DNA of 64,000 nt from Actinomycetota bacterium (GTDB taxonomy: Bacteria; Actinomycetota; Acidimicrobiia; IMCC26256; PALSA-610). This document shows positions 405 to 55,560 of the stretch, piece after piece (the first letter of the stretch is position 1; the number at the start of each line of letters is the position of its first letter). The notes beneath the pieces were generated by a model, which worked only from the letters and a program-made list of their open reading frames with translations, did no database searches and was not told where the DNA came from. The stretch is from NCBI GenBank assembly GCA_052390615.1, contig JBQTGT010000012.1, forward strand, positions 11,690 to 75,689, read 5' to 3'. The position numbers were made by a program, and so were the translations under genes.

Positions 405-588
405 AGAAAATTACCGGTCGGCGAGTCCACCGAACTAGGTCCGAACGGCCCAGGAGACCAGCTACGGCTGGCGCAGCTCGTCGCGCATCACCTTGCCGTT
501 GCCGCCGCCGGCACCAGACGCGGTGAGAGGCTCGTGACGAGTCCCACGACCGCGTGCTTCGCTGTCGCGTCCCCACCCAGCCGGTACG

Positions 589-604
589 CTGACACGAGCG
601 TCAG
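589..604 (+). promoter_or_regulatory. Dyad CTGAC-ACGAGC-GTCAG (copy 1 of 3), candidate operator or 5'-UTR hairpin
   Basis: It ends exactly 20 nt before ATG 625. The same CTGAC-ANNAGC-GTCAG pattern occurs at 54427-54442 (also 20 nt before a start) and, in reverse complement, at 30713-30728. Confidence 0.45.
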
Positions 605-624: not shown

Positions 625-1848
625 ATGGAACTGCCCAAGATCATCAGCGTCGACGACCACGTCGTCGAACCGCCGCATGTGTGGCAGACGTGGCTGGCGC
701 GCCAATACCGAGAGCGCGGCCCGCGCATCGAACGCAAGCGGTGGGGCGCGTTCCGCCACAGGGCCGGCGCCCGCTACGTCAATACCGAAGACCCCAAAGG
801 CCTGTGGGGCGACGCGTGGTACTTCGAGGACCGGTTGGTCTACGTGCACAAGCGGTTCGTGGCGATCCCACTCGAAGCGACCCCCGACGGCGACGTCACG
901 CGGTTCGACCGCACGAAGATGGTGATGGAAGCCCTCACCTACGACGAGATGCGCCCGGGGTGTTACGAGCGCGACGCACGAATCGAGGACTTCGAGCTCA
1001 ACTGGGTCGACGGTTCGCTGCCGTTCCCGACGTTTCCGCGCTTTTGCGGCCAGACGTTCTACGAAGCCGATGACAAGGAGCTCGGCCTCGCATGTGTACG
1101 CGCGTACAACGACTGGATGGTGGAGGAATGGTGTGGGCCGTCGCGCGGCATGAACATTCCGCTCTGCATCATGCCGCTCTGGGATGTCAACCTCGCGGCG
1201 GCCGAGATCCAGCGCAACGCCGACCGTGGCGTCCGCGCGTTTTGTTTCAGCGAGCTCCCGCACCACTTGAAGCTGCCAACGATTCATAGCGGCGAATGGG
1301 ATCCCGTCTTCCAGGTGTGCAACGACGCGGGCGTCACGTTGTGCATGCACATCGGGTCGTCGTCGACCAACCCGGCTGCGTCACCGGACGCACCGGGCGG
1401 AGTGGGTGGCACTCTCGCGTTCAACAACTCGATGGCATCGCTCGCGGACTGGCTGTTCTCCGGCAAGCTCATCCAGTTCCCGAAGCTCAAGCTCGCCTAT
1501 TCCGAGGGTCAGATCGGCTGGATTCCGTACGCACTGGAACGGGCCGACACCGTCTGGGATCAGCACGACAGCTGGCAGCACTCGAAGGCGCGCGTTCCCG
1601 AACCGCCCTCGACCTATTACTACGGACGCATCTTCGGTTGCTTCACGGCCGACCATCACGGCTTGCACTCGTTGCCCGAGGTCGGTGAGGACAACATCTG
1701 CTTCGAGACCGACTACCCGCACACCGACACGACATGGCCGAACTCTAAGGAGTACGTCGAGAAGATGCTGGCGGGGTTCGACGCGCGCATCGCCTACAAG
1801 GTGCTGCGCGGCAACGCGATCAAGATGCTGGAGCTCGATCGCGTCTAG
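625..1848 (+). CDS. Amidohydrolase-2 family metal-dependent hydrolase (ACMSD-like)
   Basis: 407-aa ORF. N-terminal IISVDDHVVEP (metal-binding DxH-type motif), later HIGSS and a C-terminal FETDYPH motif typical of amidohydrolase_2. High GC3. Confidence 0.9.
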   Translation: MELPKIISVDDHVVEPPHVWQTWLARQYRERGPRIERKRWGAFRHRAGARYVNTEDPKGLWGDAWYFEDRLVYVHKRFVAIPLEATPDGDVTRFDRTKMVMEALTYDEMRPGCYERDARIEDFELNWVDGSLPFPTFPRFCGQTFYEADDKELGLACVRAYNDWMVEEWCGPSRGMNIPLCIMPLWDVNLAAAEIQRNADRGVRAFCFSELPHHLKLPTIHSGEWDPVFQVCNDAGVTLCMHIGSSSTNPAASPDAPGGVGGTLAFNNSMASLADWLFSGKLIQFPKLKLAYSEGQIGWIPYALERADTVWDQHDSWQHSKARVPEPPSTYYYGRIFGCFTADHHGLHSLPEVGEDNICFETDYPHTDTTWPNSKEYVEKMLAGFDARIAYKVLRGNAIKMLELDRV

Positions 1849-30712: not shown

Positions 30713-30728
30713 CTGACGCTACTGTCAG
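30713..30728 (-). promoter_or_regulatory. Dyad CTGAC-AGTAGC-GTCAG (copy 2 of 3; read on the minus strand)
   Basis: The plus strand reads CTGACGCTACTGTCAG. It lies 40 nt upstream of ATG 30769 of the ParD-like RHH protein. Confidence 0.45.
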
Positions 30729-30768: not shown

Positions 30769-31260
30769 ATGGAAATCGCGGTGCCGGCCAAGCTCGAACA
30801 GTTCGTGCACGCGCAGGTGCGCGCCGGCAAGTACGTCGACGCGAACGATGTCGTCCGAGACGCGTTGCGGCGATTGCAAGAAACCGAGGCACCGGACACG
30901 CCCGCTGGCCTTGTGCGCGAGGCCATCAACATCGCGACACAAGCGCAGCGCGACGTCCTTGGTTTGCTGCAACGCGCGGACCGCGAGACCGACTTCCTGC
31001 ACCAATTGCTCGGTGCTGCGAGCCATGCCGTCGACTCGTCGCTCGACGTCGCGCGCAAGATCCCCGTCGCGCGCGAAGTTGAGAAGGTCGTGCGCGGCTC
31101 GCTCGAGGGCGTCACGACCGCGGCGGAGCGCGGGGAGCAAGAAGCGCGCGCGCTGCGCCAGGGCCTAGAAGGAACCGCCAAAATGTTGGGCGCGCTCGCG
31201 AGCGTGCTCGAGCGTGTGAACCAGACCACGGCTGCGATCGGCCGGGTCGGCACCGGCTAG
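30769..31260 (+). CDS. ParD-like ribbon-helix-helix protein with a ~115-aa helical C-terminal extension
   Basis: GGGGAGGGA precedes ATG 30769. MEIAVPAKLEQFVHAQVRAGKYVDANDVVRDALRRLQE matches the ParD/CC2985 antitoxin pattern (...V.sG.Y.sasEVvReaLR.L). The remainder is predicted helical with no recognised family. Confidence 0.7.
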   Translation: MEIAVPAKLEQFVHAQVRAGKYVDANDVVRDALRRLQETEAPDTPAGLVREAINIATQAQRDVLGLLQRADRETDFLHQLLGAASHAVDSSLDVARKIPVAREVEKVVRGSLEGVTTAAERGEQEARALRQGLEGTAKMLGALASVLERVNQTTAAIGRVGTG

Positions 31261-53213: not shown

Positions 53214-54419
53214 TCAGCGCTCGAGCTTGAGGGCGCGGTCGGCGATGATGTTCTTTTGGACCTCGGTCGGGCCCGCGCCGATCGTCGTGTAGCGCTGCCA
53301 CACGTAGTTGCGGGCCCAGACGCCGCCGTCGATCGCGCCCGGCGCGCCCTTCAACAACGTGCCCGTCGGGCCGAGGATGTCGAGCGCGAGCTCGGCGAGC
53401 CACAGCGAGATGTAGCCCCACTGCAGCTTGGCGAGCGGAACCTCGGGCCAGCCCTTCTCGCCCTTCAGCACCTTGGACAGAGCGCGCGCGAGCAACAAGC
53501 GCGTGTACTCGATCTGCGTGTGCAGCCGCGCCACTCGCTCGCGGATCGCCGGGTCGCGCAGCGCGTCAGGGTTCTCGGCCTTCGCGGTTTGCAGCAGTCG
53601 GCGAAGATCCTGCGCCATCGAGATCGCCTGGCCGGCGCTGCCGACACGCTCCTGACCGAGCGCGCCCATCGACACCAACCAGCCGTTGCCCTCGTCGCCG
53701 AGCCGATCGCCGGCCGACACCTCGACATCGGTGAAGAACACCTCGCAAAACAGCGAGTCGCCCGTGATCTCGCGAATCGGCCGGATGTCGATGCCGGGCA
53801 GCTTCATGTCCACGATGAATGCGGTGATCCCCTCGTGCTTCACGCCGCGCGAGATCGCAGTCGGGTCGGTGCGGAACAGGAACAGGCCCCACTTCGCGAT
53901 CTGCGCGGAGGAGATCCAGATCTTCTGACCGTTGACGACGTAGCGCGAACCGTCGTCGGAGAGGAGCGCGATGGTGCGCAGGTTGGCGAGGTCGGAGCCG
54001 GCCTGCGGCTCGCTGAACCCTTGGCACCAGTGCTCGCTCGCGTCGAGGATCCCCGGAAGCCAACGCGCTTTTTGGTCGTCGGTCCCCCAACCGATGATCG
54101 ACGGTCCGATCTGCACGATGCCGTTGGCGTTGTAGATGCCGGGCGTGCGGTACTTCGCCATCACCTGGGTATAGATGACTTGCTGCGCCGTCGTCGCGGC
54201 GCGGCCGCCCCACCCCTCGGGCCACAGGATCGCGGCCCACCGACCTTCGTTCAGTTTGTGTTGCCACGCCTTGCGCTTGTCCATCACGCCCATGACACCG
54301 CGCGACGGCTCGAGATCGTCGTCGGACCACTGCTCGACGAAGGCGGGCAGCTCCTTGTCGAGGAACGCTTCGAGTTCGTCCTTGAACGCGACGTCCGCGG
54401 TCGACCACGAGAAGTCCAT
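53214..54419 (-). CDS. Acyl-CoA dehydrogenase family protein
   Basis: 401 codons from ATG 54419 (MDFSWSTADVAFKDELEAFL...). ...CQGFSEPQAGSD... and ...GQKIWIS... motifs are present. Track ORF 53214-55070 is over-extended. Confidence 0.93.
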   Translation of the reverse strand: MDFSWSTADVAFKDELEAFLDKELPAFVEQWSDDDLEPSRGVMGVMDKRKAWQHKLNEGRWAAILWPEGWGGRAATTAQQVIYTQVMAKYRTPGIYNANGIVQIGPSIIGWGTDDQKARWLPGILDASEHWCQGFSEPQAGSDLANLRTIALLSDDGSRYVVNGQKIWISSAQIAKWGLFLFRTDPTAISRGVKHEGITAFIVDMKLPGIDIRPIREITGDSLFCEVFFTDVEVSAGDRLGDEGNGWLVSMGALGQERVGSAGQAISMAQDLRRLLQTAKAENPDALRDPAIRERVARLHTQIEYTRLLLARALSKVLKGEKGWPEVPLAKLQWGYISLWLAELALDILGPTGTLLKGAPGAIDGGVWARNYVWQRYTTIGAGPTEVQKNIIADRALKLER

Positions 54420-54426
54420 AGTGAAA

Positions 54427-54442
54427 CTGACATTAGCGTCAG
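54427..54442 (+). promoter_or_regulatory. Dyad CTGAC-ATTAGC-GTCAG (copy 3 of 3)
   Basis: It occupies the centre of the 43-bp gap between the divergent acyl-CoA dehydrogenase genes. It ends exactly 20 nt before ATG 54463 and starts 7 nt after the minus-strand ATG (54419). Confidence 0.5.
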
Positions 54443-54462
54443 GTCGAGATACCGTTTTCCCG

Positions 54463-55560
54463 ATGGACTTCGTCTTTTCCGCCGACCAGGACGCGCTGCG
54501 CGCCGCCGTCCGCAGCTTCCTCGCCGCGGAGTCGCCCAAGGCGTACGTGCGCCGGATGGCGGAGCACGACGACGCCGGCATCACGCCTGCCGTGTGGGGC
54601 CAGATCGTGGACCTGGGGTGGACGGGCGTGCTCGTGCCCGAGGAGCACGGCGGGCTCGGCCTCGGTTTGGTCGACGCCGTCGTCGTGCAAGAGGAGATGG
54701 GCCGGGCGACGTTCCCAGGGCCGTACTTCTCTTGCGCGATCCTCGCGACGCTCGCCGCGCGCGCGCTCGGGTTGTCCGACCGGCTCGTCGCGCTCGCGGC
54801 AGGACGCGAGCGGGGCGCGGTCGCGCTCGAAGAGGCGGGAAGCGGCGATCCCGTCGATCGCGTGCGCGTCCGCGCCGAGGGGCGTGGTGCGCGCCACCGT
54901 ATCGAAGGAGTGAAGCCGATCGTGCTCGATGGGCACACGGCGGATTGGGTGCTCGTGCCCGCGCGCACGCGCGAGGGACTCCAGACCTTCCTCGTAGAAG
55001 CGCCCCCAGCCGAACTGGTACCGAGTCTCGACATCACGCGCAAGTTCGCGCGCTGCTCGTTCGACGGCACACCCGCGCTGCTGGTGGGGCCACCCGGCGA
55101 TCACACCGCGACGTGGCGGCGCATCGTCGACGACGCGGCCGTGCTCCTCGCTGCCGAACTCACGGGCGTGAGCGAAGCGGCGAACAAGAGCGCGCTCGAC
55201 TACGCGCAAGCGCGCGAAGTGTTCGGCCAGCCCCTGTCGAAGTTCCAGGTGACGCGCCACAAGGCCGTCGACATGCTGCACAAGATCGAGCTGGCCAAGG
55301 TCGGCGTGCACTACGCGGCGTGGGCCTCCGACGTCGACGCGCCCGACCGCGCGGCCGCGGCCGCCATGGCGAAGTCATACGCGGCCGAAGCGGCGAACTA
55401 CATCGCGGCCGAGTGCATCCAAGTGCACGGCGGCGTGGGGTTCACGTGGGACTGTGACGCGCACGTATACCTCCGCCGGGCGAAGGTCAATGACCTGCTG
55501 TTGGGCGACCAGGCGTGGCACCGCACCCGCGTTGCGGACGAGTATTTCGCGGCGTTGTAG
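54463..55560 (+). CDS. Acyl-CoA dehydrogenase family protein
   Basis: 365 aa from ATG 54463 (MDFVFSADQDALRAAVRSFL...), with C-terminal ...ECIQVHGGVGFTWD.... Track ORF 54175-55560 is over-extended. Confidence 0.9.
   Translation: MDFVFSADQDALRAAVRSFLAAESPKAYVRRMAEHDDAGITPAVWGQIVDLGWTGVLVPEEHGGLGLGLVDAVVVQEEMGRATFPGPYFSCAILATLAARALGLSDRLVALAAGRERGAVALEEAGSGDPVDRVRVRAEGRGARHRIEGVKPIVLDGHTADWVLVPARTREGLQTFLVEAPPAELVPSLDITRKFARCSFDGTPALLVGPPGDHTATWRRIVDDAAVLLAAELTGVSEAANKSALDYAQAREVFGQPLSKFQVTRHKAVDMLHKIELAKVGVHYAAWASDVDAPDRAAAAAMAKSYAAEAANYIAAECIQVHGGVGFTWDCDAHVYLRRAKVNDLLLGDQAWHRTRVADEYFAAL

Follow-up and report, generated by a model that had tools for sequence, protein, structure and literature searches.

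The TetR-family repressors KstR and KstR2 control cholesterol side-chain and ring catabolism in Mycobacterium and Rhodococcus through the operators TnnAACnnGTTnnA and AnCAAGnnCTTGnT, and the inducer of KstR2 is a CoA thioester. RutR of Escherichia coli, also a member of the TetR family, has the operator TTGACCAnnTGGTCAA and a regulon devoted to pyrimidine use. For the TetR protein TTHB023 of Thermus thermophilus HB8, the consensus CTGACCGATCGGTCAG was described, and the named targets are fatty-acid synthesis genes (PMC7022988). The consensus of T. thermophilus SbtR (TTHA0167) is TGACYrnnyRGTCA (PMC4948773). A C6-to-G exchange in the TTHB023 site raised the KD from 2.1 nM to 279 nM, that is, binding became about 130-fold weaker (PMC7022988, Table 1). 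Mce3R, going by the title of the paper that describes it, binds a non-palindromic sequence.

The motif described here, CTGACR-N4-YGTCAG, was found in a 64,000-nt window (the whole stretch of DNA analysed) from an acidimicrobial genome. A TetR-family repressor quite probably uses it as its operator, and the likeliest such repressor is the product of the gene at C33:18909-19538 of the same genome (hereafter the C33 TetR). The predicted system resembles KstR and KstR2 in that a single autoregulated TetR repressor would act through a short palindromic operator on many actinobacterial promoters, and in its targets, which are acyl-CoA dehydrogenase, hydratase, thiolase, CoA-transferase and oxygenase genes; by analogy, the inducer is likely to be a CoA thioester here too. 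The operators, however, differ (TnnAACnnGTTnnA and AnCAAGnnCTTGnT versus CTGACR-N4-YGTCAG), and the C33 TetR is not a KstR ortholog (19.3 bits against NCBIfam NF033703, cut-off 280). With RutR, the likeness consists of a 16-bp palindrome with TGAC/GTCA half-sites and a TetR dimer, whereas the inner bases, the regulon and the protein are different (C33 TetR against TIGR03613, 32.9 bits, cut-off 368). TTHB023 and SbtR have the nearest characterized operators in sequence, with the same CTGAC/GTCAG outer arms in the same 16-bp frame, located at lipid-metabolism promoters, bidirectional ones included, and at the regulator's own gene. Both, however, depart from the present motif at positions 6/11, which are critical for TTHB023 (C/G there, against R/Y in all 12 sites of the present genome), the phylum is different, and solved TetR structures all score 46 bits or less against the C33 protein. 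The mechanism proposed below would be textbook TetR repression. The operator itself was not found in the papers searched, which were mostly from outside subscription journals, in agreement with the sequence-only reading of this DNA that had recognized no published consensus. The same literature held no paper joining Acidimicrobiia, TetR, regulon and operator, and a mycobacterial TetR survey contained no CTGAC or GTCAG motif.

The motif and its conservation

Three 16-mers had been picked out in the sequence-only reading, and all three were confirmed by direct reading of the window. They are given below with a possible fourth site and the adjoining genes (PWM, position weight matrix).

589..604, no strand assigned: predicted operator site 1, CTGACACGAGCGTCAG, PWM score 24.6 bits
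30713..30728, no strand assigned: predicted operator site 2, plus strand CTGACGCTACTGTCAG, minus strand CTGACAGTAGCGTCAG, PWM score 24.9 bits
54427..54442, no strand assigned: predicted operator site 3, CTGACATTAGCGTCAG, 31.0 bits, the top PWM score of the genome
2545..2560, no strand assigned: possible site 4, TTGACGCGCGTGTCAG, one mismatch
625..1848, plus strand: Amidohydro_2-fold protein (Pfam PF04909), predicted target of site 1
30769..31260, plus strand: ParD-like RHH protein (Pfam PF03693, TIGR02606)
54463..55560, plus strand: acyl-CoA dehydrogenase, PimD/IpdE2-like small subunit (Pfam; NCBIfam scores below the curated cut-offs)
53214..54419, minus strand: acyl-CoA dehydrogenase, PimC-like large subunit (Pfam; NCBIfam scores below the curated cut-offs)

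The rarity estimated by hand in the earlier reading was borne out: CTGAC-N6-GTCAG occurs three times in the window against 0.08 expected, and three or more copies were obtained in 0 of 100 shuffles. The genome-wide search that it had proposed was carried out on the window's own genome (G000; 3.41 Mb, 68% G+C, 101 contigs, the window being C12:11690-75689) and returned 12 exact copies versus 0 for the reversed control. Placement outside genes also held genome-wide: all but one of the 12 copies are intergenic, and the exception lies 21 nt from a start codon on the minus strand. The binomial probability of 11/12 is about 5e-11, given 9.4% non-coding DNA according to our own simple codon-usage gene caller (3264 genes, 90.6% coding). 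A PWM scan of the genome gave about 15 sites scoring at least 18 bits. The shorter form CTGAC-N5-GTCAG is present in one copy only; in a relative (L072, G029:C20), such an N5 variant, CTGACGACCCGTCAG, precedes a paralog that shares 62% identity with gene 625-1848, at the place where orthologs have the N6 site.

CTGACR-N4-YGTCAG fits all 12 genome copies, and the consensus of 57 exact sites from related genomes is the 20-bp palindrome ACCTGACRcTAgYGTCAGGT, in which R/Y at positions 6/11 of these PWM training sites is by selection. The arms are thus 6 bp (CTGACR/YGTCAG) around a 4-nt spacer, and not 5 bp around 6 nt as had been read at first. That reading had also described the spacer as conserved and asymmetric. 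The consensus spacer is itself palindromic (cTAg, or RcTAgY), and A-NN-AGC represents a match of each window site to RcTAgY at five of six positions. The GGT that follows both site 1 and site 3 is real as well and is a flank of the 20-bp palindrome, which extends beyond the 16-mer.

Conservation was examined in about 40 genomes of the same family and order (41 in the counts). Thirty-four of the 41 carry 7-30 exact copies, with 0-5 for the reversed control. Conservation upstream of orthologous genes, which the sequence-only reading had named as a test, holds for sites 1 and 3. An exact or one-mismatch copy of site 1 precedes 27 of 29 orthologs of gene 625-1848, although the surrounding DNA is unalignable, and a copy of site 3 with no more than one mismatch precedes 22 of 29 orthologs of gene 54463-55560. 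Site 3 occupies the 43-bp gap separating the divergent acyl-CoA dehydrogenase genes, and its counterparts in relatives usually lie within a short gap common to the divergent partner gene.

Site 2 is kept before the RHH gene in G009, G023 and, weakly, G007 only; in these genomes it is shared with a divergent gene for a 270-aa amidohydrolase-like protein, a gene with no ortholog in G000. It may still control the RHH gene, which is then a possible lineage-specific target, or it may be a relic. In the minus direction, site 2 contains an embedded TAGCGT, and 7 nt further on stands a GTG that opens nothing but an antisense frame across ppa; this GTG position is the start of the 270-aa gene in the three relatives. 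A relic promoter at site 2 may fire antisense into ppa.

Site 4 lies between divergent genes, for a lipoprotein and an ABC substrate-binding protein. It was absent from the syntenic place in the relatives examined and is thus unsupported by conservation. Sites 1 and 4 have common flanks (ggtacg-site-gtgcg, 581-609 versus 2537-2565; 5-6 nt on each side), and the identity of these flanks hints that some 30 bp of promoter DNA were duplicated locally.

The candidate regulator

The window contains no TetR gene, and the genome has about 22. Four candidate regulators were compared by co-occurrence with the motif, among them the RHH protein 30769-31260 that the sequence-only reading had put forward. 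Its orthologs were found in 12 of 41 genomes versus 34 of 41 for the motif, and it was rejected as the regulator. The best candidate lies outside the window:

G000:C33:18909-19538, minus strand: candidate TetR repressor, divergent from a MaoC-dehydratase gene

This protein has an N-terminal TetR_N domain (PF00440, 61.3 bits against a cut-off of 24). Orthologs at E<=1e-20 were present in 34/34 genomes with at least seven motif copies and in 0/7 genomes with none or one (G004, G012, G022, G032, G033, G035 and G036), counts that come from related, not independent, genomes and are partly trivial because several motif-less genomes are also without the target pathway. In a class-wide sample of 121 genomes, the C33 TetR was present at E<=1e-49 in all 20 with at least seven copies; among the other 101, a strong homolog was present in four only (family f24, 45-48% identity, two or three motif copies each). 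Its best solved relatives, 3F1B and EthR, reach only 44-46 bits, and it matched none of the curated NCBIfam equivalogs (FadR, 51 versus 200 bits; FasR, 43 versus 330).

The motif is also found upstream of the C33 TetR gene itself. In G000, this site ends 19 nt before the GTG start, and a hexamer, TACCCT, stands 7 nt after the site and 6 nt before the GTG. One or two motif-like sites, often 62-63 bp apart, precede 27 of the 29 orthologs with enough upstream sequence. Moreover, in G012, one of the genomes without this TetR, a -10 hexamer, TAGATT, and the right operator half are still in place before the ortholog of gene 625-1848, and the left half is gone (L069), whereas the operator is intact upstream of the ortholog in its congener G024 (L068). 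The pair represents a natural case of operator loss. The predicted target DNA of the C33 TetR comprises ACCTGACGCTAGCGTCAGGT and the three window sites.

It is unlikely that the operator is read by some other regulator, either a further factor with the same phyletic pattern or several TetR paralogs sharing the site. Such a reading gains from the scope of the co-occurrence comparison, which covered four candidates, from the one or two further C33 TetR homologs (41-53% identity) that relatives carry, and from a perfect site that separates the C17 TetR gene from a thiolase gene. Against it stand the complete agreement between the C33 TetR and the motif and the conserved sites upstream of its own gene, while the other three candidates failed and a separate palindrome, TAATCGCACGATTA, belongs to the C17-type TetRs.

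The two other TetR candidates were rejected on their distribution. Orthologs of the TetR at G000:C50:11956-12603, whose gene has a site with two mismatches 72 nt before it, occur in 10 of 41 genomes. The TetR at G000:C17:26516-27178, with a perfect 26-bp palindrome nearby, has strong matches in about 7 of 41 (about six relatives), and a different palindrome stands by its own start. The C17 TetR and a paralog at C33:73226-73864 are 75% identical, and each is near a thiolase gene. The palindromes by these two starts, TAATCGCACGATTA and TAATCACGCGATTA (G000:C17:27178-27215 and G000:C33:73864-73900), are probably these TetRs' own operator. Because the two thiolase promoters also have the CTGAC motif, the arrangement suggests dual control. 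The C17-adjacent thiolase is without the ATG of its C33 paralog (ATGGCTGAC changed to AGGACCTGAC, G000:C17:27390-27520) and may be a pseudogene or use another start.

Promoter architecture and proposed repression

An E. coli-type sigma-70 consensus scan around sites 1, 2, 3 and 4 gave no promoters, as expected because the host is a high-G+C actinobacterium, so the putative -10 assignments below rest on TAnnnT statistics. Across the genome, TAnnnT shows a sharp peak 6-9 nt ahead of predicted starts (216 of 1543 genes whose upstream gap is 60 nt or longer), followed by a broad shoulder at 25-45 nt. A sharp peak at this distance is characteristic of leaderless mRNAs, and leaderless genes probably make up a large part of the genome's total.

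Around 70 distinct exact sites, TAnnnT was nearly confined to fixed offsets: embedded at positions 8-13, overlapping the left arm (TAnnCT), 1 nt after the site, or 7-9 nt after it. The embedded form, TAnYGT, which contains the central TA, was found in 27 of the 70 sites, and TAnnCT over the left arm in 11. A flanking hexamer was present in 38/43 sites without a central TA versus 12/27 with one (Fisher 1.2e-4), so the two tend to exclude each other, a test that is indicative only because the offsets were picked after seeing the data and the sites are related. In the window, the following elements were assigned by reading the sequence.

585..590, plus strand: putative -10 hexamer TACGCT, overlapping the left arm of site 1
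616-621, gene 625-1848: Shine-Dalgarno sequence GAGGGG
30720..30725, plus strand: predicted -10-like hexamer TACTGT, embedded in site 2, toward the RHH gene
54450..54455, plus strand: putative -10 hexamer TACCGT, 7 nt after site 3 and 7 nt before ATG 54463, predicted leaderless
54430..54435, minus strand: putative, predicted -10 hexamer TAATGT, embedded in site 3, 10 nt before the ATG at 54419

For gene 625-1848, transcription is predicted to start within the operator and to give a leader of about 27-30 nt. At site 3, the orthologs of the divergent gene have the same embedded hexamer 7-9 nt before their start, and the site-bearing orthologs of gene 54463-55560 show the leaderless signature in 16 of 22 cases.

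Sites 1 and 3 indeed end 20 nt before ATG 625 and ATG 54463, as had been pointed out. A fixed distance applies to the acyl-CoA dehydrogenase gene, where the spacing is 19-24 nt in 9 of 22 site-bearing orthologs, but not to site 1. The 20 nt of site 3 would follow from the order of operator, 7 nt, -10 hexamer, 7 nt and leaderless start, which places the operator at about -36 to -21. The 20 nt of site 1 is a coincidence, because the distance varies from 4 to 84 nt among its orthologs.

The sequence-only reading had left two options, a dimeric transcription-factor operator or, in the 5' UTR, an RNA hairpin with a 5-bp stem and a 6-nt loop that would steer translation or mRNA stability. The former is retained and the latter is very improbable. 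The hairpin can fold, and the equal distance of sites 1 and 3 from their ATGs would suit it, but the folding z-scores are unremarkable (-1.0 to -1.9) and an Rfam scan of the whole window returned no matches. Across 85 distinct orthologous sites, it is the sequence of the arms that is conserved, and departures from it are uncompensated: the outer pair is impossible in 25, positions 6/11 are A and C and hence unpairable in 37, and the only two two-sided changes (GTGAC...GTCAC) are equally expected of a symmetric DNA site. Moreover, the motif serves genes on both strands, and its distance from the start ranges from 3 to 134 nt among orthologs overall. Many sites would not be transcribed at all, because they lie upstream of a -10 hexamer that itself precedes a leaderless start by 6-9 nt. 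That the motif recurs by chance, or is a small REP- or MITE-like element, mobile or repetitive, without regulatory role, has a negligible probability: the flanks common to sites 1 and 4 would suit it, but the copies exceed expectation, are nearly all intergenic, co-occur with one TetR gene and are kept at orthologous positions across families while their flanks diverge.

The motif was found at non-random places, conserved, in company with a TetR gene and overlapping -10-like hexamers. From this we infer binding and repression by the C33 TetR, and likewise the ligand and the substrate. One or two dimers, once bound, would cover the core promoter and block RNA polymerase. Three layouts are proposed. 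In the first, the operator would sit 7-9 nt upstream of the -10 hexamer, over the -35 region of a leaderless gene (site 3, plus-strand gene). In the second, the -10 hexamer would overlap the left arm of the operator (site 1). In the third, the -10, as TAnYGT, would lie within the operator itself, across its spacer and right arm (site 2, and the minus-strand gene at site 3). Release would be brought about by a ligand, probably an acyl-CoA intermediate, and the repressor gene would itself belong to the regulon and be autoregulated.

The predicted regulon and its meaning

The product of gene 625-1848 had been called an amidohydrolase. Amidohydrolase-related dinuclear oxygenases (ARO), among them DitZ and PtmU3, are defined by two metal-binding motifs on an amidohydrolase fold, D-x-H near the N terminus and D-x-P-H-x-D/E toward the C terminus (PMC13154177). 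D10-D11-H12 and D-Y-P-H-T-D were read from the translation, and the best PDB match is DitZ (8UYR, E 1.6e-50; PtmU3, 2.8e-30). Because the ARO-defining motifs are present, the protein is probably a DitZ/PtmU3-like dinuclear oxygenase rather than a hydrolase. The gene is unusually conserved, with 85-92% identity across genera of the family. DitZ, its nearest match, is a diterpenoid hydroxylase. Three further Amidohydro_2 proteins behind motif sites (C50:19247, C54:921 and C96:14637) have D-x-H by reading, and two of the three also have D-x-P-H-x-D/E.

Genes behind strong sites in G000 encode acyl-CoA dehydrogenases (the divergent PimC/PimD-like pair at site 3 among them), enoyl-CoA hydratase, MaoC dehydratase, acyl-CoA synthetase, SDRs, an alpha/beta hydrolase and four Amidohydro_2-fold proteins; thiolases, a family III CoA-transferase and a hydantoinase-B-like protein were assigned by reading. 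The regulon predicted from these sites comprises about 15 operons that would degrade fat and ring compounds, including the repressor's own gene. Acyl-CoA dehydrogenases, enoyl-CoA hydratase, thiolase, MaoC dehydratase, acyl-CoA synthetase, CoA-transferase, SDRs and several DitZ/PtmU3-like oxygenases would come under the C33 TetR.

Two orthologs of gene 54463-55560 have very compact upstream regions. In one relative (L102, G001), the two acyl-CoA dehydrogenase genes diverge across only 24 bp, CAT-gaac-CTGACGATAGCGTCAG-gttc-ATG, and each start has a TAnYGT hexamer 7 nt ahead of it. In another (L104, G019), the same operator lies 4 nt before a start, with no adjoining divergent start.

We would suggest, as a tentative idea held at somewhat less than even confidence, that the operator is also a minimal bidirectional promoter, in which the central TA and the T of each GTCAG arm make up a -10 hexamer, TAnYGT, on both strands, and that the regulon, in which diiron oxygenases of the DitZ/PtmU3 type and heteromeric acyl-CoA dehydrogenases abound, is a widespread acidimicrobial pathway for terpenoid, sterol-like or alicyclic acids as CoA esters. 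If so, the 24-bp gap in some relatives would hold two divergent leaderless promoters together with a common repressor site.

Few members of the Acidimicrobiia have been cultured, although the group is abundant in soils and waters. With the consensus and the candidate repressor, a catabolic regulon of about 15-30 operons could be read from metagenome-assembled genomes, and its membership would hint at which oxygenases, acyl-CoA dehydrogenases and transporters work together. One protein and a 20-bp DNA would also offer a simple handle on the inducing substrate. An operator that contains or abuts the -10 of leaderless genes would represent promoter economy.
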